From Flavobacteriales bacterium (GTDB taxonomy: Bacteria > Bacteroidota > Bacteroidia > Flavobacteriales_D > Sanyastnellaceae): DNA of 36,248 nt. The stretch covers positions 1 through 36,248 of the forward strand of contig JBMZAL010000001.1 in assembly GCA_049611325.1 (NCBI GenBank), in the 5' to 3' direction. The notes below the pieces were generated by a model. The model saw only the letters and a list, made by a program, of their open reading frames with translations, did no database searches and was not told the DNA's origin. How positions within the stretch are numbered: position 1 is the stretch's first letter; each line of letters opens with the position of its first letter. This document shows, in pieces, positions 12,089 to 30,293 of the stretch. Position numbers and translations under genes: made by a program.

Positions 12089-13453
12089 TCACATGGACAA
12101 CGCGTGCATCCACTCCATGCACACGATGGCACCGATGGTGCCCACGGCATAGCCCAACACCGCCAAGAGAACGCCAACGGGAGCCAATGCGGGGGAGAAG
12201 GCGCTTGCCACAATGGGCGCGGATGCAGCGCCACCGACATTGGCTTGGGAGCCAACGGCGACAAAGAAGAACGGGGCTTTGATGAGTTTGGCCACCAGGA
12301 GCAGCACGACGATGTGAACGAGCATCCAGATCAAACCAATGCTGACCGCACTGCCATACATGGCCCAGTTTTCGATGAGGCTGCCAATGTCCATTTTCAT
12401 GCCAATGGTGGCCACCAAGATGTACAAGAAGACGGAGCCCATTTTGCTTGCACCGGCGCCCTCGTAAGATTTGGCGGAGGTGAAACTGAGGGCAATGCCC
12501 ATCGCAGTGGCAGTGACGACCAACCAAAAGAACCCTTTGGTGATGGAAGAAAGGTAGATGGCCGGAGAGTCTGGATTGGCAGCCATCGTGTTGTCGAGCC
12601 AAGAGGACAACGCCACAGATGCATTGTCGGCGACCAGGTGAGAGACGGCGACCCCTCCAAACGCAATGGCCACGATGACCATCCAATCTGGGAAGCTGGG
12701 AATGCGTGCGGATTTGGCTTGCAATTGTTCCACCTTGTCCTGAAGCTCATTGACTGCGGAGGCATCTGCCTTGAGCCATCCGTCAATTTTTTCGCGGATG
12801 CCAGCCCCGAACAACAGGAAGGGCATCCACAAATTGGCCACGAACACATCGACGATGAGCATGATGGAAAATTGATCGTCCAGCGTATCGGAGATCTCCT
12901 TGAGTGCGGCCTGGTTGGCACCACCACCGATCCAGCTTCCGGCCACGGTGCTTAATCCGCGCCAATAGGCATCTGGCGCATTTCCGCCCAACACCTCTGG
13001 GTTCGACTGTCCCACCAGCCACAAGGCAAGGGGGCCGCCGATGACGATGCCCGCGGTGGCTGCAAAAAACATGATGATGGCCTTGGGTCCGAGGTTGTAG
13101 ATGCCTTTCAGGTCAATGGACAGGCAGAGCAAAATCAAGCTGGCAGGGAGGAGGTACCGCGAAGCCACGAAATACAGGTTGCTCTCTTCGCCATTCACAA
13201 TGCCCAGCGAATTCAACGCCGCAGGAATGAAATAACACATCAGCAACGCCGGGACGAAGGTGTAAAAGCGCTTGAATTGAGGCAGAGAGTGGGTGTAAAA
13301 GACCAACCCCAAAGCACCTGCAAGAAGTCCGAGAACCACTGCATCGTTGGTGAAGACGGCGTTGAGCAAAAAGGAAGAGAGCATGTGGGTCATCGCAAGA
13401 CAGGTTTGGGCAAAAATGCCAAAAACCAGACAAACGAAAAACGGCCCGCGCAT
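12089..13453 (-). CDS. DUF819 family integral membrane protein
   Basis: Polytopic membrane protein. NDAVVLGLLAGALGLVFY near the N-terminus, SWIGGGANQAA and the overall layout match the DUF819 (YjcL-like) family as remembered. The start is ambiguous, either ATG 13453 or ATG 13393. Confidence 0.85.
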   Translation of the reverse strand: MRGPFFVCLVFGIFAQTCLAMTHMLSSFLLNAVFTNDAVVLGLLAGALGLVFYTHSLPQFKRFYTFVPALLMCYFIPAALNSLGIVNGEESNLYFVASRYLLPASLILLCLSIDLKGIYNLGPKAIIMFFAATAGIVIGGPLALWLVGQSNPEVLGGNAPDAYWRGLSTVAGSWIGGGANQAALKEISDTLDDQFSIMLIVDVFVANLWMPFLLFGAGIREKIDGWLKADASAVNELQDKVEQLQAKSARIPSFPDWMVIVAIAFGGVAVSHLVADNASVALSSWLDNTMAANPDSPAIYLSSITKGFFWLVVTATAMGIALSFTSAKSYEGAGASKMGSVFLYILVATIGMKMDIGSLIENWAMYGSAVSIGLIWMLVHIVVLLLVAKLIKAPFFFVAVGSQANVGGAASAPIVASAFSPALAPVGVLLAVLGYAVGTIGAIVCMEWMHALSM

Positions 13454-18551: not shown

Positions 18552-20414
18552 ATGAAGAATGCCAAAAGCCTCGCAGGATGGCTGACCTGTGTCTTTGTCT
18601 TGGGCTGTGTGGTCGTTGCTCAGGCGCAATCGCCTTGTCCGTCGGACTCCTTGCCCTTGAACGTCAGCGTGACCACCGATGCTTGGGGTTACGAATTGTA
18701 TTGGGAGCTCATCGATGCCTCTGCGGCATGCGGTGATGGAACGGCCTTGCTGTGGGGAGGCAATCCAGAAGTTGGATGTGGTGATGGCGTGGCGGGACTT
18801 CCCAGTGAGGTCTACGACAACAACACCTTGTACACGTCCGCGACCATTTGCGTGAGTGAAGAAGACAGCTTGGTGCTCGTTCACAGAGACAGCTATGGCG
18901 ATGGAGGCAGTGACTTCGCGATTGCACTTGGCGGCAATGAGGCCTTTGGGTTTGACGGCTCTGGCAACGGGAACGATTGGTCCTTTCAGCCTGTGCTTGC
19001 CGTGGCGGATTTGCCTTGTCTTGCCGAATCCATCTTCGCAGACACCATGACTTGGGTGGGGTCAACGGAGGATGCATCTGTCTCTCCGAATGAGCCTTCG
19101 CCACCGGCTTTGGGATGCGGCGCGTTTGGCGGTTGGTGTGAAGCGGGCTTGGAAAATACTGTGTGGCTGTCTTGGGAAGTGCCTGCAGGAGGAGGTGTCT
19201 TTGAAATCAGCACCTGCAACGAACAAACCACATTCGACACGCAGCTTGCGCTTTGGGGCGTGACAGATTGCGCTGATTTTGCGTCTTACGAACTCGTGAA
19301 TGCCAACGACGATGCGGGCTGTGGTTTGGGGTCGTTCCGAAGCACCTTGTTGACGCCTTGTTTGGAAGGAGGGGAGACGATGATGCTTCAAATCGACGGC
19401 TATTACGGCGCCGTGGGGACTGTGGAAGTGAGTGTCACGACCGCGGCGGCAGACGCTTGGACAGTGTCTGCGGGCGTGCAAGACCTGTCATGCAGCCTGT
19501 TGACTTCGTTCGACCCCAACGGATCGATTTCCGTCAACAGCAACGTGGGCAACGAGGCCGTGGCCTGGATGTGGGAGGGGCCGTTTGGCTTCACTTCCGA
19601 CGCCGCCAGCATTGGCCCCCTTCTCCCCGGAGACTACACGCTCGAGGCATCCTTCTGTGGCCAAACGTTCTCTGCGTCTTACGAGGTGGAAGAGCCCGAA
19701 CCCTTGGAGCTTTTGGTTTCGCTTAGCCCCGATTGCGCATTGGGCTCCACCTCTGGTGTGGTGGACATCGAAGGCGGACAGGGCGTGGCGACGGCCACAT
19801 GGACGTCCGGGGCATTCGGCACCACAGGGGTGGAGGTCAGTGGACTTCCAGGCGGCCTGTTCGAGGTCGATGTGGTCGATGAAAATGGCTGCGAAGCTTC
19901 GGAAGTCGTTTGGGTTGAAAGCGTCGGTGTGCCCGAGGTGGACTTGGGACCGGATCAATTTGGATGTGCCGGGGATGCTTTTACCTTGCTCGCCCCCTTG
20001 GGTGCAGGGTTGACGTACGCATGGACCACAGGCTCCTCGGGTGCGTTGGCTGTGGTCCAAACCGACGCGCCCGGAACACTCGTCGTCGGGGTGGAGGTCA
20101 CCGACGGAGCGGGATGCACCGGTGCGGATGCGGTCATTTTGACCTTGGACGATTGCACGTCCGCGTTGGACGATTTGGGACAGGACTTCCGCTTGAATGC
20201 GTACCCCAATCCGTTTGTGGATGACATCCAAGTGGAACTCCCTGAAAGCCATGCCGGAGGAACGCCTCAATTGCGCGACCTGTCGGGTCGCGAGGTGCCG
20301 TGTGTTTGGACGGTGCAAGGAACCACTTACCGCACCCATGTGGAGGTGCCAGCAGGGGTGTACTTCTTGTCAGTGGCTCCAGGCTTGGAAACCATTCGCT
20401 TGGTCAAGCAATAA
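18552..20414 (+). CDS. T9SS-secreted multidomain protein (TD-W module, PPC-like domain, two SprB-type repeats, type A C-terminal domain)
   Basis: Signal peptide MKNAKSLAGWLTCVFVLGCVVVAQAQ. The N-terminal module carries VTTDAWGYELYWEL...HRDSYGDGG. SprB-like repeats are present (DLSC...GSISVN...W.WEGPFGF...LLPGDYTLEA; DCALGSTSGVVDIEGGQG...SGLPGGLFEVDVVDENGC). The C-terminal domain FRLNAYPNPFVDD...PAGVYFLSV...LVKQ spans 20187-20411. Confidence 0.85.
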   Translation: MKNAKSLAGWLTCVFVLGCVVVAQAQSPCPSDSLPLNVSVTTDAWGYELYWELIDASAACGDGTALLWGGNPEVGCGDGVAGLPSEVYDNNTLYTSATICVSEEDSLVLVHRDSYGDGGSDFAIALGGNEAFGFDGSGNGNDWSFQPVLAVADLPCLAESIFADTMTWVGSTEDASVSPNEPSPPALGCGAFGGWCEAGLENTVWLSWEVPAGGGVFEISTCNEQTTFDTQLALWGVTDCADFASYELVNANDDAGCGLGSFRSTLLTPCLEGGETMMLQIDGYYGAVGTVEVSVTTAAADAWTVSAGVQDLSCSLLTSFDPNGSISVNSNVGNEAVAWMWEGPFGFTSDAASIGPLLPGDYTLEASFCGQTFSASYEVEEPEPLELLVSLSPDCALGSTSGVVDIEGGQGVATATWTSGAFGTTGVEVSGLPGGLFEVDVVDENGCEASEVVWVESVGVPEVDLGPDQFGCAGDAFTLLAPLGAGLTYAWTTGSSGALAVVQTDAPGTLVVGVEVTDGAGCTGADAVILTLDDCTSALDDLGQDFRLNAYPNPFVDDIQVELPESHAGGTPQLRDLSGREVPCVWTVQGTTYRTHVEVPAGVYFLSVAPGLETIRLVKQ

Positions 20415-23695: not shown

Positions 23696-23815
23696 TCAGG
23701 AAGCCATCATGCCAATGGCCACCACAACGATGGCGAAGAGGAAGAGTGCAAAAACAACGGGCCCGCCAATTTCGTTTTGCTCGGGCTCAAGGTGGTCGTG
23801 GTGATCGTGTGCCAT
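23696..23815 (-). CDS. Candidate 39-aa small membrane protein (below the ORF-track length cutoff)
   Basis: Minus-strand ATG at 23815 and TGA at 23696-23698. Translation: MAHDHHDHLEPEQNEIGGPVVFALFLFAIVVVAIGMMAS, a His/Asp-rich head plus one clean TM helix. It fills an otherwise empty gap. Confidence 0.3.
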   Translation of the reverse strand: MAHDHHDHLEPEQNEIGGPVVFALFLFAIVVVAIGMMAS

Positions 23816-23962
23816 GCTGCAAAAATACGCGGAACAGCGACAATTTGGCGCGCCTGGTCATGCAACCTTTCTCGGTGAGAAAGGGTCACCTTCATGGGTG
23901 ATGTATCTTGCACCGCCCGCGCGCCCGCGAGGGCCACACATTGAAACCAAAATCTGCACGTC

Positions 23963-26365
23963 ATGATTCTCTCGCCTGCACGCGCTCTTCGGAGCCTCTC
24001 CTTGTTCGCCATGTCCCTTGGTGTTGTTGTGGTCAACCAGGCCTCGGCCCAATGTTCTGAGTCAGAGAGCGCCCTCGTTGTGGAAGTCACCACGGATGGC
24101 TACCCAAGCGAAATTTCTTGGGAAGTGGTCATGGGCGGGGAAGTCGTGTTGAGCGGAGGGCCGTATTCTGAGGGCGGCACGATGTACGCAGACACGTTGT
24201 GTTTTCCATCCTCTGACGAGCCTTGCATTCAATTCGAGATTTTTGATTCGTTTGGCGACGGCATTTTTGATCCCGGAGGGTACAATGTGTACCTCGATGG
24301 CCAAACTGTGGCCTCCGGCGGTGACTACGGCGACTCGGATGGCGCCTTGTTCGCGTGTGCTCCGGGGGAAACGTGCAATGATGCGATTGCGTTGACCGAA
24401 TCAGACTACGGCACGGTCGCCTCTCCCGGAGACTCGTACTGGTACACCTTCACGCCAGAGTCCAACGGCATGTACAGCTTCAGCTCGTGCGGAAACGGCT
24501 GTGACACGCGGTTGTACATCTACGACTACTGCCAAATGGGCAACTTTGACGACACCAACGAAGGCTCCATCTACTATGACGACAATCAAGGAGGTTGCGG
24601 CGACGAGGCGCAATTGACCGTGTTGCTCGAGGCAGGTGTGACGTATTGGATTCGTTGGGCCTCTTTCGACGGTCCTTGCGCTGAGGCTTGGAGTTGGGAA
24701 TTCGGCTTTGCGGGTCCGCCCGCGGGGTGCATGGATCCTGAAGCCTGCAACTACAATCCCATGGCGGAGGAGGACAACGGCTCATGCATCTACCCGGGCG
24801 ATCCCGCGTGCAACGGTCCTGACCTCGTGGTGGTGGAGGAGGCCATCATCAGCAGTCTGCAGACGCAGGTGATGCAGGTGAGCGAATCGGATTGCTACAT
24901 CGATGAGGGATGCCTCAATGGTTACGGCGACCGTGAACTCGTTCGTTTCACGACCCACATCAAAAACATCGGTGACCTGGATTATTACATTGGGGTCCCC
25001 AGCGAGGATGGCAACAACCAGTTCGAGTGGGGAGATTGCCACGGCCACTGGCACCACAATGGCTACGCCAAGTACGATTTGTTTGACCTGAATGGAGATT
25101 TGATCCCAATCGGATTCAAGAACGGATTCTGTGTGATGGATTTGGAGTGCAGCGATGGCGGCACTTACCAATACGGTTGTGGCAACATGGGCATTTCTGC
25201 GGGATGTGGAGACATCTACGGCGCAGGGTTGAGCTGCCAGTGGATTGATGTCACCGACGTGGAAGACGGAACGTACTACCTCGTGGTCCGGGCCAACTAT
25301 GAATTCATTCCCGACGCGTTGGGCCGTGAAGAGATGGACTACGACAACAACCACGCTGCGGTGTGCATCAACCTCGACCGTACATCAGGTGCTTTGGTGG
25401 TGGAACACGTGGGGGGGTGTGAGCCCATCTACGACTGCAACGGGGTGATCTTTGGCACCGCCGAGATGGATTGCAATGGCGAGTGCGGAGGCACTGAACT
25501 CGTGGGCGACCTCGACAACAACGATGCGCAAGAGTATGCAGATGCTGTGGCTTACGTGGAAGGCATCCTCGGCAACGACTTGACAGCCTCTGCCTGCACG
25601 GACATCGACCAAGATGGCCACATCACGGTGAGCGATGCCGCGTTGATGTCGCAGTGCCAATGGTTCAATGAGGCTCATCAGCACCCAGACAGCAGCGGCG
25701 TGCACGACCGTTGCGAATTCCCCGTCCAAGAAATCATCAACATCTACGACACGGTGCATTTCATGGTGGCCGACGTGAATTGGGGCATGAACTTCTTCGA
25801 TGTGCACGTCTTGAATCCCCACAACCGCATCGTGGGGTACGAGCTTGACTTCTCTGGTGTCAGCATCAGCGATGCGGTGAGTTTGGCGGACCCGATCAAC
25901 TACGACATCGCGCCGTCGTTTGTGCCCGGGGGCAACAAGGTCATTGGCCTCAGCTACGACGGAGCGTCCTTCCACAAAAACCTTGAGTGGGTTCCTTTCC
26001 TGCGGGTGTACTGGGCCGACGCCGACGAGGAAGTGTGTTTGGCCGATGTGGTGGATGTGGTCAATGAGGCCTACGAGAACACCCTGCATACGCTTGTGGA
26101 TGGATGTGCCACCGACGTCATCACCATGGAAGCCGCCAAGTCGGTTCAGGTAATGCCCAACCCCATGGGCGACTTCAGCACGGTTCGGTTCCCACTTGGC
26201 GTTTGGGACCTGGAAGTCATGGACGTGCAAGGGCGCATCATCCTTCAGCGTCGCGTTTCTGGCAGAACAACATCGCTCCTCCGCGAGGACCTCGGGGCCG
26301 GGAGCTACGTCTTGCGTTTGCAAAATGAACAAGCATCAGCCGTGGTTCGTTTTGAAGTTCGTTGA
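23963..26365 (+). CDS. T9SS-secreted lysyl-oxidase-like (LOX) copper amine oxidase with accessory modules
   Basis: Signal peptide MILSPARALRSLSLFAMSLGVVVVNQASAQ. Domains in order are a TD-W module (24053-24358), a PPC-like domain, one GCMDPEACNYNPMAEEDNGSC motif (24725-24793) and a LOX catalytic domain (24815-25381). These are followed by EF-hand/dockerin-like loops, a cohesin-like beta domain and a type A T9SS domain (26144-26362, VQVMPNPMGDFSTVRF...GAGSYVLRL...FEVR). Confidence 0.9.
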   Translation: MILSPARALRSLSLFAMSLGVVVVNQASAQCSESESALVVEVTTDGYPSEISWEVVMGGEVVLSGGPYSEGGTMYADTLCFPSSDEPCIQFEIFDSFGDGIFDPGGYNVYLDGQTVASGGDYGDSDGALFACAPGETCNDAIALTESDYGTVASPGDSYWYTFTPESNGMYSFSSCGNGCDTRLYIYDYCQMGNFDDTNEGSIYYDDNQGGCGDEAQLTVLLEAGVTYWIRWASFDGPCAEAWSWEFGFAGPPAGCMDPEACNYNPMAEEDNGSCIYPGDPACNGPDLVVVEEAIISSLQTQVMQVSESDCYIDEGCLNGYGDRELVRFTTHIKNIGDLDYYIGVPSEDGNNQFEWGDCHGHWHHNGYAKYDLFDLNGDLIPIGFKNGFCVMDLECSDGGTYQYGCGNMGISAGCGDIYGAGLSCQWIDVTDVEDGTYYLVVRANYEFIPDALGREEMDYDNNHAAVCINLDRTSGALVVEHVGGCEPIYDCNGVIFGTAEMDCNGECGGTELVGDLDNNDAQEYADAVAYVEGILGNDLTASACTDIDQDGHITVSDAALMSQCQWFNEAHQHPDSSGVHDRCEFPVQEIINIYDTVHFMVADVNWGMNFFDVHVLNPHNRIVGYELDFSGVSISDAVSLADPINYDIAPSFVPGGNKVIGLSYDGASFHKNLEWVPFLRVYWADADEEVCLADVVDVVNEAYENTLHTLVDGCATDVITMEAAKSVQVMPNPMGDFSTVRFPLGVWDLEVMDVQGRIILQRRVSGRTTSLLREDLGAGSYVLRLQNEQASAVVRFEVR
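24815..25381 (+). other. Lysyl oxidase catalytic domain (PF01186-like)
   Basis: GPDLVV...DCYIDEGCL...RELVRFTTHIKNIGDLDY...FEWGDCHGHWHHNGYAKYDLFDL...GFKNGFCVMDLEC...GCGDIYGAGLSCQWIDVTDVEDGTYYLVV...DYDNNHAAVCI is colinear with the human LOX catalytic domain as remembered (PDLV...LLRFPQRVKNQG..DF...WEWHSCHQHYH...GHKASFCLEDT.C...[25 protein letters not shown]...DYTNNVVRCDI). Confidence 0.85.
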
Positions 26366-29300
26366 TGAGAACCCCAATCACTTTGAAGACCACTCCCATG
26401 CGCCTTTGGAACACGCTTTTCTTGCTGGCATGTTTGCCCACGATCGGACTGGCACAAGTCGTCATCAATGAATTCTCGTGCAGCAACTACACCCTCGGCA
26501 TTGCGGGGGACAACGAAGATTTTGTCGAGTTCTACAATCCCAGTGGGGCCAATGTGGATTTGGGCGGGTACTTCTTGTCAGACAACCCTGCCAACCCGGA
26601 CAAATTTGAAATCCCTGCAGGCACCGAAGTTCCGGCAGGGGGGTATTTGATGGTGATGTGTTCTGCCGAAGGGGAACTTCTGACCAACCTCTATGTCGGG
26701 GGATTCTTGAACACCAATTTCAAAATCAACCAGTGTCAAGGGGAGTCGCTTGTTTTCTCAGATCCGGCCGGCAACATTTTGGAGAGTTACACCTATGGTG
26801 CTGACATCCACACCACGCAGGCGGACCACAGCTGGGCGAGAAGTGTGGATGGAGATGCCTCCTGGGAGGTTTGTGTGATGCCTTCACCAGGTGCGGCAAA
26901 CGGGATGGATCCGTTTGACATGTACACAGGGTATGCACCGACCCCCATTTTCAATGTGGAAGCGGGTTATCACACAGGGGCGCTGAGCATCACGCTTTCG
27001 ACACCTGCAGGGTTCGACATTTACTACACATTGGATGGTTACACGCCCACCGAGGGCAGCACACTCTACACCGGTCCCATCGACATTTCATCGACAACGG
27101 TTGTCAGGGCCATCGCATTCGATCCAAACGACGATGTTCCACCCAGTGTGGCACCGAGTTTTGTGGCGACCAACACCTACTTCCTTGGGGCAGATGCCCA
27201 CTCCATTCCAGTGGTTTCAGTCAGTGGAAACGGTCAAGAAGATGGCGCGTGGGGCTGGGGAGGCAATGACGAGTTGGCCCACGTCGAGTTTTTCCATGCG
27301 GATGGCACATTTTGGGTGGAGGCCTCGGGGGACAGCAATGAACACGGAAATGACAGCAATGCCTACGGTCAACGCGGGTTTGATTGCATCATCCGAGATC
27401 AAATGGGGTACAATCATGCCTTTGAGGCTGAGCTCTTCCATGTGAAGGAAAGAGATGAATACCAGCGTTTGATTTTCAAGGCTGCGGCCAACGACAACTA
27501 TCCCTTCGAGCCAGGAGCGCACATTCGGGATGCATACGTGCACACCCTGAGTCACCTTGCCGATTTGAAGCTCGATGAGCGGACCAACGAGAGCTGCATT
27601 GTCTACCTCAATGGCCAGTACTGGGGCGTGTATGAATACCGTGAGAAGGTGGACGACACGGACTTTACGGAAGAGTACTACGACCAAACCCGTCATTTCG
27701 TGGACTTCCTCAAAACATGGGGAGGGACTTGGGAAGAGTACGGTTCAGGCGACGATTGGTACGACCTCGTCACCTTCTGCACAACGCAAGACATGACGGT
27801 GGATGCGAACTACGAATACGCGGTGTCGCAATTGCACCCCATGTCGTTGATCGACTATTTCATTCTGAACAGTTACATCGTTTCGGCAGACTGGTTGAAT
27901 TGGAACACGGCGTGGTGGCGTGGCCGCCATCCCGATGGAGATGCCAAACGTTGGCGCTACGCCTTGTGGGACATGGACGCGAGTTTTGGGCACTACATCA
28001 ACTACTCGGGGGTTCCCGACACAGGGCCCACTGCGGATCCATGCAACCCAGAAAGCATGGGCAATTTGGGTGGGCAAGGACACATTCCGGTGCTCAATGC
28101 GTTGCTCGAGAACGAGACTTTTTGGAACACCTACATCAACCGCTGGGCTGACTTGGGGAACACGGCGTTCACATGCACGAACATGCATGCAGTGCTCGAC
28201 AGCATGGTGCAGGTCATCACGCCCGAGATGCCACGCCAAATGGTTCGCTGGGGCGGCAACATGGCAGGCTGGGAAAACGAGCTTCAGGAATTGCGCGACT
28301 TCATTGACAGCCGCTGCGAGGACGAAGTGGTGGGGGGCATGGAAGACTGCTACGACGTGGTGCCTGTGAACCTGACCTTGGACATTGTTGGACAAGGAGA
28401 GGTCCAGGTGAACTCGGTGGATTTCAACCCCTCCATGGTGCCCTACACTGCGTGGTATTTTGCCGATGTTCCGGTGGCGCTTGAGGCGGAAGAGTCGTTT
28501 GGGGTGGCCTTTTTGTACTGGGAGGTCGTGTCCGGGGACGTCACGATAGCCGACGTCACAGACCCTGTACTGCCCTTGACACTCACTGGGGATGCACACA
28601 TTGTGGCGCACTTTGGAATCCCCGTACCTCCTGAGGAAGTGACCTTTTCTGTCAGCCCTGTGGGTTCTGGATTCATCGTGATTGACGGCACCACCATCAA
28701 CACATACCCCACCACGGATTTGGTGAATGTGGGGAACCACAACTTGCTTGCACAGCCCAACGAGTGGTGGGCCTTTTCCCACTGGTCTTGGAACGGCAAC
28801 GTCATCAACCCCGATGCCGGAGCCTCCCCCGCGCAATTGGAGGTCTTCGAACCAGGTTCGGTGACAGCGCATTTCGTTGAAATCCCACACACGAACTTGA
28901 CTGTGCTGGTGTCTCCACCTCAGGCCGGTCAAGTGCGGGTCGTGGACATGGCGATGGTGGAGGACAGTTGGAACATGTCTTTTGAGCCCGTGGGGCCGGT
29001 GGTGTTTGAGGCCCTGACAGAAGAAGAGTGGCAGTTCAGCCATTGGGAAGTGGCCGTGTCCACGCCCTTGCCAGAGGACAAGGCCAATCCCATGGCCCTG
29101 ACCTTGACGGACGTGCCCTACGAAATTGTGACGGCGCACTTCGAGCCGGTGGAGTTCCACCTGTACGTACCCAACGCATTCACGCCTGACAACGATGGGG
29201 TGAACGACGCGTTCCATCCTCTGGGAGCGGGATTTGAGGGAAGTTCATACTCCTTCAGTGTCTTCAACCGTTGGGGGGAGGTGGTGTTTGCCACTGACGA

Positions 29301-29448
29301 CCCAGAGCAGCCGTGGATTGGCCAAAACAACCAAAAGCTAGGCACCCACTTCGTTCCTGACGGGGTGTACGGATACCGTGTCGAGGCACAAGGCTACCAC
29401 GAACTTGTTCCCACCGTGTTGCGGGGGACAGTGACGGTCGTTCGTTGA
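26365..29448 (+). CDS. T9SS (type B C-terminal domain) secreted LTD-CotH protein (CotH kinase-like)
   Basis: Signal peptide ...MRLWNTLFLLACLPTIGLAQ. The lamin-tail domain is VVINEFSCSN...DFVEFYNPSGANVDLGGYFLSD...AGGYLMV. A chitobiase-C-like segment is present (DIYYTLDGYTPT..STLYTGPIDISSTTVVRAIAF). The CotH core is (LIFKAAANDN...IRDAYVHTLSH...VYLNGQYWGVYEYREKVD). Three ~85-aa repeats each end in [VI][VT]AHF. The gliding-motility type C-terminal domain is YVPNAFTPDNDGVNDAFHP...GVYGYRV (29155-29445). Possible starts are ATG 26365 (shares one base with the LOX stop), ATG 26398 and the ORF-track TTG 26362. Confidence 0.88.
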   Translation: MRTPITLKTTPMRLWNTLFLLACLPTIGLAQVVINEFSCSNYTLGIAGDNEDFVEFYNPSGANVDLGGYFLSDNPANPDKFEIPAGTEVPAGGYLMVMCSAEGELLTNLYVGGFLNTNFKINQCQGESLVFSDPAGNILESYTYGADIHTTQADHSWARSVDGDASWEVCVMPSPGAANGMDPFDMYTGYAPTPIFNVEAGYHTGALSITLSTPAGFDIYYTLDGYTPTEGSTLYTGPIDISSTTVVRAIAFDPNDDVPPSVAPSFVATNTYFLGADAHSIPVVSVSGNGQEDGAWGWGGNDELAHVEFFHADGTFWVEASGDSNEHGNDSNAYGQRGFDCIIRDQMGYNHAFEAELFHVKERDEYQRLIFKAAANDNYPFEPGAHIRDAYVHTLSHLADLKLDERTNESCIVYLNGQYWGVYEYREKVDDTDFTEEYYDQTRHFVDFLKTWGGTWEEYGSGDDWYDLVTFCTTQDMTVDANYEYAVSQLHPMSLIDYFILNSYIVSADWLNWNTAWWRGRHPDGDAKRWRYALWDMDASFGHYINYSGVPDTGPTADPCNPESMGNLGGQGHIPVLNALLENETFWNTYINRWADLGNTAFTCTNMHAVLDSMVQVITPEMPRQMVRWGGNMAGWENELQELRDFIDSRCEDEVVGGMEDCYDVVPVNLTLDIVGQGEVQVNSVDFNPSMVPYTAWYFADVPVALEAEESFGVAFLYWEVVSGDVTIADVTDPVLPLTLTGDAHIVAHFGIPVPPEEVTFSVSPVGSGFIVIDGTTINTYPTTDLVNVGNHNLLAQPNEWWAFSHWSWNGNVINPDAGASPAQLEVFEPGSVTAHFVEIPHTNLTVLVSPPQAGQVRVVDMAMVEDSWNMSFEPVGPVVFEALTEEEWQFSHWEVAVSTPLPEDKANPMALTLTDVPYEIVTAHFEPVEFHLYVPNAFTPDNDGVNDAFHPLGAGFEGSSYSFSVFNRWGEVVFATDDPEQPWIGQNNQKLGTHFVPDGVYGYRVEAQGYHELVPTVLRGTVTVVR

Positions 29449-29465
29449 GGAAAGGACTTCTGGCC

Positions 29466-30293
29466 ATGTTGACGTCCGTGGTGTTGTACACCTCGGCCAA
29501 CCTGTGTGTTAAGGAGCTTTCTCATTTGGGCACGTTCCAGCTTGTCTTTCTTCGATCTGCCGTGTCATTGTTGTTGTGTGTGGTGTACCTGCGTCGCATG
29601 GGCATCTCACTTTTGGGGAACAACAGGGGATGGTTGGTTGTGCGAGGAATCGCCGGGATGTTCGGCTTGGCTGGGTTCTTTCATACCGTCAAGTACATTC
29701 CTCTGGCCAGTGCCACAGTGATTCAATATTTCAGTCCTGTATTCACGGTCTTGCTTGCGTCTCTTTTTTTGAACGAACGGGTTCATCGCTCGCAGTGGTT
29801 GTTTCTCGGACTTGCACTCCTCGGAATTGTGATGGTCAAAGGGGTTGATCCACGGGTGCCTTGGGGGATGTGGGGGTTGGGCCTGTCGTCGGCTTGCTTT
29901 GCGGCAGTGGCCTACCTCGCCACCATGAAATGTCGAGATACCGACCATCCCGTGGGGGTGGTGATTTGGTTTCACCTGTTGGCCGTGCCCGTCATGGGCA
30001 CGTTGTCATGGGGTGATTGGTCTCCCATGACGGACACGGATTGGGGCCTTGCACTGGCCATCGGCGTGTTGAGCATTTCGGCGCAGGTCTTGATGACCGT
30101 GGCGTTGCACAACGAAGATGCAGGCATGGTGATGCCCTTCAAGTACCTCGGTGCCGTGCTCGCACTGGCCATTGGGTGGTGGGGTTATGGGGAAAGCATG
30201 TCGACGATGAGCCTTGCAGGCATGGCCTTGGTCGTGGCCAGCATTTCAGCCAACACGGTGTTGAAAGCGCGGCGCTCAGCTTCGGCCGCGTGA
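29466..30293 (+). CDS. EamA/DMT family transporter
   Basis: About ten TM segments in two EamA-like halves, with ...IPLASATVIQYFSPVFTVLLASLFLNERV.... I prefer ATG 29466. The ORF-track start at 29445 is a TTG overlapping the CotH stop. Confidence 0.85.
   Translation: MLTSVVLYTSANLCVKELSHLGTFQLVFLRSAVSLLLCVVYLRRMGISLLGNNRGWLVVRGIAGMFGLAGFFHTVKYIPLASATVIQYFSPVFTVLLASLFLNERVHRSQWLFLGLALLGIVMVKGVDPRVPWGMWGLGLSSACFAAVAYLATMKCRDTDHPVGVVIWFHLLAVPVMGTLSWGDWSPMTDTDWGLALAIGVLSISAQVLMTVALHNEDAGMVMPFKYLGAVLALAIGWWGYGESMSTMSLAGMALVVASISANTVLKARRSASAA

Follow-up and report, generated by a model that had tools for sequence, protein, structure and literature searches.

A lysyl oxidase gene and an LTD-CotH gene form a probable lineage-specific operon of type IX secretion cargo in uncultured marine Flavobacteriales

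Analysis of a 36,248-nucleotide stretch of DNA from a Flavobacteriales bacterium (GenBank assembly GCA_049611325.1, contig JBMZAL010000001.1, positions 1 to 36,248; hereafter the window) showed the presence of two adjacent genes whose products are predicted cargo of the type IX secretion system (T9SS). The list of open reading frames (ORFs) contains them as two plus-strand ORFs, 23963..26365 and 26362..29448; ORF A encodes a lysyl oxidase (LOX) of 800 aa with a type A sorting tail, and ORF B encodes a protein in which a lamin-tail domain (LTD) is combined with a CotH kinase-like core and a type B sorting tail. The initial annotation of this DNA, made from the letters alone, had described back-to-back T9SS cargo genes of these two kinds, and the Pfam and NCBIfam domain calls agree with it. 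The G+C content of the window is 57%. All features named below lie on the plus strand unless otherwise stated.

The LOX protein (23963..26365) consists of a signal peptide, N-terminal beta domains, the catalytic domain, a dockerin-like and cohesin-like region and a C-terminal sorting domain. The predicted Sec signal peptide, MILSPARALRSLSLFAMSLGVVVVNQASA followed by QC (23963..24049), was read by eye from the translation, as was that of CotH, and Cys31, located directly after it, is invariant across 48 homologues. The catalytic domain (aa 311-473, 24893..25381) is recognised by Pfam Lysyl_oxidase, PF01186 (E 3e-33, 115.5 bits against a cut-off of 20.4), and human LOXL2 (PDB 5ZE3) aligns with the protein at E 2.4e-23. 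Alignment to LOXL2 places the copper site, CHGHWH, at 25037-25054, while Lys386 (GFKNGFC, 25118-25120) and Tyr460 (DYDNN, 25340-25342) fall at the LOXL2 positions of the lysyl tyrosylquinone (LTQ) cofactor. His360, His362 and His364 of the copper core FEWGDCHGHWHH, as well as the LTQ Lys, are invariant in the 48 homologues. LOX activity requires the histidine core, namely, the three essential His of WEWHSCHQHYH, together with the LTQ Lys and Tyr, corresponding to human K320 and Y355 (PMC4448552); judging from the alignments, the LOX of the window has the full set of residues that a copper/LTQ amine oxidase needs. In 7 of the 48 homologues (alignment A5), including P0077 and P0109, which have no T9SS tail, the LTQ Tyr is replaced by T, F, I or L, with the His core and Lys retained; these homologues may be inactive or perform different chemistry. 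Tyr460 of the window is intact.

The type A C-terminal sorting domain of LOX (aa 731-797, 26153..26353) scores 27.0 bits with TIGR04183, against a cut-off of 23, and 22.9 with Pfam PF18962, under its cut-off of 27; the tail is modelled as a confident beta-sandwich and matches structures of T9SS C-terminal domains (PorZ C-terminal domain 5M11, and 4G5A). The structure model as a whole is moderate and its catalytic core is partly of low confidence, yet LOXL2 is still the first match: Foldseek returned 5ZE3 on top and, after it, collagen-binding domains of ColG, cohesins and the PorZ C-terminal domain. The weak matches to ColG collagen-binding domains (5IKU) fall in the N-terminal beta domains (approximately aa 30-250, 24050-24720). 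In the region of approximately aa 500-730 (25470-26150), two Asp-rich repeats (GDLDNNDAQ..., DIDQDGHITVSD) form a dockerin-like pair, and the beta domain after them is cohesin-like (Foldseek 2W1N, 6KGD). The dockerin-like, cohesin-like and ColG-like regions were all undetected by Pfam.

The catalytic domain, the CHxHxH motif and the LTQ Lys and Tyr are shared with the lysyl oxidase family, represented by human LOX, LOXL2 (5ZE3), prokaryotic LOX (PMC4448552) and LOX of Haloterrigena turkmenica (PMC6452851). Animal LOX enzymes are exported, and the LOX of the window is likewise predicted to be exported. It differs from the known proteins in being a predicted bacterial T9SS type A cargo with ColG-like N-terminal domains and a dockerin-like and cohesin-like C-terminal half, and, unlike animals, the organism of the window has no collagen or elastin. 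Most prokaryotic LOX proteins are simple single-domain proteins, and LOX was reported in Bacteroidetes in 2015 (PMC4448552).

The LTD-CotH gene (26398..29448) encodes a T9SS type B cargo of 1016 aa, counted from the ATG at 26398, or of 1027 aa from the ATG at 26365; Pfam positions in this protein are counted from the latter and residue numbers from the former. The protein carries, in this order, LTD, CHB_HEX, CotH, three B-repeats and the type B tail. The composition given in the initial annotation, namely, a lamin tail, a CotH core, three [VI][VT]AHF repeats and a type B tail, was confirmed by Pfam, self-alignment and AlphaFold. The signal peptide from the start at 26398, MRLWNTLFLLACLPTIGLAQ followed by VVINEF, ends at the conserved boundary between AQ and VVINEF. 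Pfam places the LTD at aa 32-145 (26458-26799) and the CHB_HEX_C_1/Fn3_assoc domain at aa 199-256 (26959-27129), and profile matches in this part of the protein include the beta-hexosaminidase C-terminal domain 6Q63 and lamin tail structures. Three InlB B-repeat-like repeats of approximately 88 aa each (28354..29151) align with one another, end in IVAHF, VTAHF and VTAHF, give a weak Pfam match to Flg_new_2 (InlB B-repeat) and are modelled by AlphaFold as all-beta with confidence (predicted local distance difference test, pLDDT, approximately 80-90). The type B (CHU_C) sorting domain (aa 935-1009, 29167..29391) scores 51.7 bits with PF13585, against 27, and 32.7 with TIGR04131, slightly under 35.

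The CotH kinase-like core (aa 364-650, 27454..28314) is recognised by Pfam CotH, PF08757 (E 4e-29, 102.6 bits against a threshold of 23.8). An exhaustive search of representatives with this core yielded 6440 clusters at 50% identity, among which the LTD-CotH layout is widespread. A search of the PDB with the core as a single sequence gave no match, and the profile of close orthologues (A2) reached no CotH structure; only the diverse profiles A3 and A4 reached 5JD9, CotH of Bacillus cereus, profile A4, built from diverse CotH-domain sequences, at E 1.4e-4. In the alignment of profile A4 to 5JD9, Asp498 and Asn503 of the motif DWLNWN (27889-27906) and Asp525 (27970-27972) and Asp527 (27976-27978) of the motif WDMD stand opposite D224, N229, D247 and D249 of B. 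cereus. We take D224 and D247 of B. cereus to be the equivalents of D228 and D251 of B. subtilis; the Asp-Asp spacing of 23 residues is equal in B. cereus (D224-D247) and B. subtilis (D228-D251), with an offset of 4. Mutation of D228 or D251 inactivates the B. subtilis CotH kinase (PMC7821199). All four residues are invariant over 14 CotH orthologues (alignment A2). A comparison of the catalytic residues with Bacillus CotH had been proposed as a check in the initial annotation, and by this profile alignment the predicted protein of the window keeps the Asp and Asn of the catalytic loop as well as the Asp that binds metal.

The Pfam CotH domain and the aligned catalytic residues are thus common to the protein of the window and the Bacillus spore-coat kinase (PDB 5JD9/5JDA; cotB-cotH-cotG cluster, PMC7821199), the relationship being remote and visible at the profile level only (E 1.4e-4). 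In contrast to Bacillus CotH, which is located in the cytoplasm of the mother cell, CotH of the window is predicted to be secreted and is multidomain, and no sporulation is involved. Unlike in the cotB-cotH-cotG cluster, no substrate gene with Ser/Lys/Arg repeats adjoins it; none was found among the ORFs of at least 180 aa in the 17-36 kb region of the window.

The conserved catalytic residues bear on a reading in which CotH is a non-enzymatic surface adhesin or binding protein, comparable to the surface CotH of Mucorales, and shares the LOX promoter by an accident of insertion. Modules of the binding type abound in the protein (LTD, CHB_HEX_C, three Ig-like repeats and the type B tail), and non-catalytic CotH domains do exist, the catalytic Asp being replaced in several remoter family members, in which this column is not conserved; we know of nothing that would supply a kinase with ATP outside the cell. 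Against this, the invariance of Asp498, Asn503, Asp525 and Asp527 in the A2 orthologues, aligned with the inactivating positions of B. subtilis, argues for retained catalysis, and we regard a purely binding role as distinctly unlikely.

At the LOX-CotH junction (26363..26400), the LOX stop codon TGA (26363-26365) shares one base with an ATG (26365-26367) in the form TGATG, and a second in-frame ATG is located at 26398-26400. The base-sharing noted in the initial annotation is present in the window; among the junctions of 37 related loci, it was found in L001 and L016 only, and L002, 97% identical to the window, has TGAAG in its place. Translational coupling through TGATG, also suggested there, is rejected, as the overlap is not conserved among related loci. 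The ATG equivalent to 26398 is kept in L001, L016 and L002. Since the overlap is not conserved while this second ATG is, the true CotH start is likely 26398. From the LOX stop, the CotH ATG is no more than 32 nt away in the window and approximately 2-60 nt away in all members of the clade described below.

Metatranscriptome contigs of three runs cross the junction (X25, 26078-26495; X28, 26329-26674; X29, 26156-26402), and in X29 the depth on LOX is 6-21 against zero on the upstream gene of an S46 peptidase. No terminator-like site was found at the junction. LOX and CotH are likely co-transcribed, because they lie on the same strand, with a gap of at most 32 nt and no terminator between them, and RNA contigs from three metatranscriptomes cross position 26365; the probable co-transcription proposed initially is thereby supported. 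A scan for sigma-70 promoters found none for LOX or CotH, although such a scan does not detect Bacteroidota promoters; the Bacteroidota -7 box (TAnnTTTG) was found nowhere in LOX or in the LOX-CotH gap, its nearest match serving a minus-strand ORF of 39 aa upstream of LOX.

Alternatively, the two genes could be adjacent and separately transcribed, with CotH read from a promoter inside the 3' end of the LOX gene and with RNA contigs that represent carry-over of DNA. In favour of this, a genuine though short gap separates the two genes when CotH begins at the conserved start 26398, the sigma-70 scan misses Bacteroidota promoters and the RNA contigs are unstranded. In the distant locus L074 (LOX 53%, CotH 50% identity), LOX and CotH are 183 nt apart and a terminator-like hairpin, GAGCTCCTTCGGGAGCTTTTTTT, follows LOX (12314-12500); therefore, co-transcription of the two genes is not universal. 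Contigs spanning the junction in three independent metatranscriptomes, the lack of a -7 box in LOX and the gap, the lack of a terminator-like site at the junction and gaps of no more than 60 nt throughout the clade make separate transcription highly improbable for the window. In the initial annotation, a CotH domain without the kinase active-site residues, combined with a start at 26398 and a promoter of its own, had been named as one finding that would refute the proposal; the start is likely there, the catalytic residues align with those of Bacillus CotH and no promoter was found in LOX or the gap by scan.

The gene of an EamA/DMT transporter (29445..30293) follows CotH, and its TTG start overlaps the CotH stop (TTGA). 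Because of this overlap, EamA is probably the third gene of the unit LOX, CotH, EamA. The end-to-start junction of CotH and EamA is identical in all close relatives, and the EamA residues ahead of the first ATG are also conserved in relatives. The order CotH, EamA on the same plus strand is found in Sanyastnella as well; therefore, LOX-CotH is no older than this pairing.

Conservation of the adjacency, likewise proposed initially as a check, was analysed in two samples, namely, 80 loci of species-representative genomes selected by LOX and 80 metagenome loci selected by CotH, and only loci with sufficient flanking sequence were counted. Among LOX genes with a type A tail, CotH is located directly downstream in 32/32 loci at an identity of at least 57% and in 1/17 loci below 57%; in the paralogue class without the type A tail, it is downstream in 0/16. 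In the sample selected by CotH, LOX is located directly upstream in 19/19 loci at an identity of at least 62%, in 9 of the 17 loci at 56-61% and in none of the 27 loci below 56%, six of which have S46 directly upstream. The adjacency is conserved in many related genomes; it defines one clade of uncultured marine Flavobacteriales and is not unique to the genome of the window. Homologues of both proteins number hundreds in marine metagenomes, all of them in uncultured Flavobacteriales.

Seven contigs with clear LOX homologues bear titles other than Bacteroidota: Comamonadaceae (L002, L005, L034, L037), Methanobacteriota (L024, L073) and Nitrosopumilus (L061). Synteny of S46, the 39-aa ORF and LOX was found in five of the seven, with the exception of L037 and L073. 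These titles look like errors of binning or labelling, and such contigs may inflate reports of archaeal LOX.

The conserved block is represented by the S46 peptidase gene, the minus-strand 39-aa ORF, LOX, CotH, EamA and, farther on, a fused MeaB/methylmalonyl-CoA mutase gene. Parts of it occur separately. In 16 LOX orthologues of less than 57% identity and without CotH, S46 is upstream in 14, and EamA is located directly after LOX in most. In Sanyastnella coralliicola, the order is S46, two small called genes together with the uncalled 39-aa ORF, CotH and EamA; LOX is missing between S46 and CotH, as it is in freshwater relatives, where S46 and the 39-aa ORF precede CotH. CotH genes of 59-61% identity were also found in an unrelated context, together with genes of nucleotide pyrophosphatase, a glycoside hydrolase family 16 (GH16) enzyme, methyltransferase and adenosine deaminase. 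In L105 (2395-11651), for example, CotH (59%) is surrounded by genes of a laminin-G nucleotide pyrophosphatase/phosphodiesterase, a GH16 enzyme bearing a carbohydrate-binding module (CBM), a methyltransferase and an adenosine deaminase; this nucleotide- and glycan-scavenging context may hint at the role of CotH. In two Sanyastnella-type loci without LOX next to CotH, L081 (17847-19294) and L082 (11311-14046), another LOX-domain protein was found, with the order PKD-LOX-PKD, approximately 1200 aa and a match to Cu-binding MopE-like proteins; its gene lies approximately 6.5 kb downstream of CotH on the opposite strand.

In all arrangements, the edge nearest the promoter is the 39-aa ORF, so LOX is located at the 5' end of a unit that elsewhere consists of CotH, which suggests insertion into an older unit and a later loss of CotH in one branch. 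LOX probably came between the 39-aa ORF and CotH of an older and widely conserved arrangement S46, 39-aa ORF, CotH; after the insertion, LOX and CotH would use a common upstream promoter region, and CotH would later have been lost in the lineage that carries LOX without it. Together with the junction data, we consider it probable, with reasonable rather than high confidence, that LOX, CotH and, probably, EamA form a lineage-specific operon encoding two separately exported and separable T9SS exoenzymes. Each of the two would cross the inner membrane via Sec and the outer membrane via T9SS. Outside the cell, LOX would act as an oxidase of primary amines, whether lysine side chains or others, with the formation of an aldehyde, ammonia and H2O2, while CotH would be a surface-held multidomain protein, possibly transferring phosphate.

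The initial annotation had gone further and proposed that the pair could form a module for maturation of an extracellular matrix or coat. In such a module, LOX and CotH would successively modify a shared extracellular protein, for example one rich in Lys and Ser, by cross-linking and phosphorylation. Co-transcription and tight spacing in a clade reaching approximately 58% identity are consistent with it, as are the intact catalytic residues of both predicted enzymes and the occurrence of a LOX-domain gene near CotH in Sanyastnella-type loci too. The substrates of Bacillus CotH are Ser/Lys/Arg-rich repeats (PMC7821199), and lysine is likewise the target of LOX. However, sister lineages carry LOX or CotH without the other at this locus, and CotH genes of equal similarity are also found in unrelated contexts. 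S46 and EamA stay neighbours of the pair about as well as LOX and CotH stay neighbours of each other; therefore, the conservation of LOX-CotH may be mere synteny, and obligate co-occurrence of the two beyond synteny was not found in the loci compared. No repeat-rich candidate substrate was found among the ORFs surveyed. The T9SS tails of LOX and CotH differ in type, and hence the two proteins possibly have different final places. Both the periplasm and seawater contain little ATP; therefore, an extracellular kinase role of CotH needs direct proof. There is no evidence that LOX and CotH work as a team, the proposal of a maturation module is not sustained and we consider a functional two-enzyme module unlikely. 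Its more specific form, in which CotH phosphorylates Ser/Thr and LOX oxidises neighbouring Lys of one Lys/Ser-rich surface protein to give a cross-linked and phosphorylated coat, appears very doubtful.

Several points weigh against the reading of an operon of two separable exoenzymes. Tight spacing and gene order are retained down to approximately 58% protein identity, which could reflect selection for co-expression and hence a functional link between LOX and CotH. With the PKD-LOX-PKD gene near CotH, the two families are found close together a second time, independently. The choice between insertion and loss of LOX was made from a small sample, without a tree. In the full-length AlphaFold model of CotH, pLDDT is below 50 over most of the kinase core, and the alignment to 5JD9 covers the chain from residue 72 onwards and so leaves out the Lys and Glu of the N-lobe. 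Finally, DNA carry-over is possible in the unstranded metatranscriptome contigs.

Within the favoured reading of separable exoenzymes, LOX and CotH are most likely independent enzymes of a cell surface foraging for protein and polymers. Nearby genes of the window encode peptidases of families S46 and M43, a protein rich in CBMs and a further protein with a weak match to a T9SS tail, which fit such a foraging surface. Amine oxidases at the cell surface are able to free ammonium from organic amines, and such release would fit neighbours of the foraging type. The protein with the weak tail, of 620 aa (18552-20414), has no confident Pfam domain and a weak type A tail (PF18962, E 0.005), and its N-terminal start is LOX-like (QxC...L.V.VTTD.(W/Y).E..WE, pairwise E 1e-5).

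The conserved 39-aa ORF, MAHDHHDHLEPEQNEIGGPVVFALFLFAIVVVAIGMMAS, is located on the minus strand at 23696..23815, has a His-rich N-terminus and one membrane helix and runs away from LOX, lying directly upstream of LOX or, in loci without LOX, of CotH. A tblastn search with it gave 89 hits over 162 related loci, nearly all one per locus and mostly between S46 and the next plus-strand gene. No family was assigned to it by Pfam or NCBIfam, and the Sanyastnella record does not have it among its called genes. A Bacteroidota -7-like sequence, TATTTTTG, is located at 23820-23827, just upstream of this ORF. The encoded peptide might handle metal, since it is His-rich and its ORF adjoins the gene of a copper enzyme.

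Signal peptides and C-terminal sorting domains relate LOX and CotH to T9SS cargo of type A (TIGR04183, e.g., gingipains) and type B (TIGR04131/CHU_C, e.g., SprB), respectively. Genes of type B cargo often precede a porP/sprF-like gene. No such partner was found next to CotH, where the downstream gene encodes the EamA transporter, and a single operon holds one cargo per tail type. In public records of metagenome-assembled genomes, orthologues with 79-81% identity (P0010 and P0130, on one contig) are named 'lysyl oxidase family protein' and 'CotH kinase family protein', while those at approximately 60% (P0040, COA49_01870, and P0182, COA49_01865, with adjacent locus tags) are both 'hypothetical protein'. 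LOX and CotH are known and already annotated families; their pairing is undescribed in the literature searched but not shown as a system. The literature searched on LOX with CotH and on CotH with LTD, T9SS or Fam20 gave nothing relevant, in agreement with the initial annotation, which knew of no described system with such a pairing.

Secreted bacterial lysyl oxidases and CotH proteins outside Bacillus are both abundant in ocean metagenomes, and we know of no function for either. The more modest result is a well-defined, expressed operon of two predicted T9SS cargo enzymes whose active sites appear intact. For LOX, it raises the question of whether the enzyme serves the scavenging of amine nitrogen, the production of H2O2 or the cross-linking of proteins; for CotH, whether activity of a kinase-like protein is possible outside the cell. 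The cultured Sanyastnella coralliicola has a CotH gene, and so both proteins are good targets for biochemistry. A functional pairing would indicate that a bacterial surface layer is matured by enzymes, and a phosphorylated, cross-linked coat would be a parallel, on a Gram-negative marine cell, to both the patterning of the Bacillus spore coat and the maturation of the animal matrix by Fam20C and LOX.

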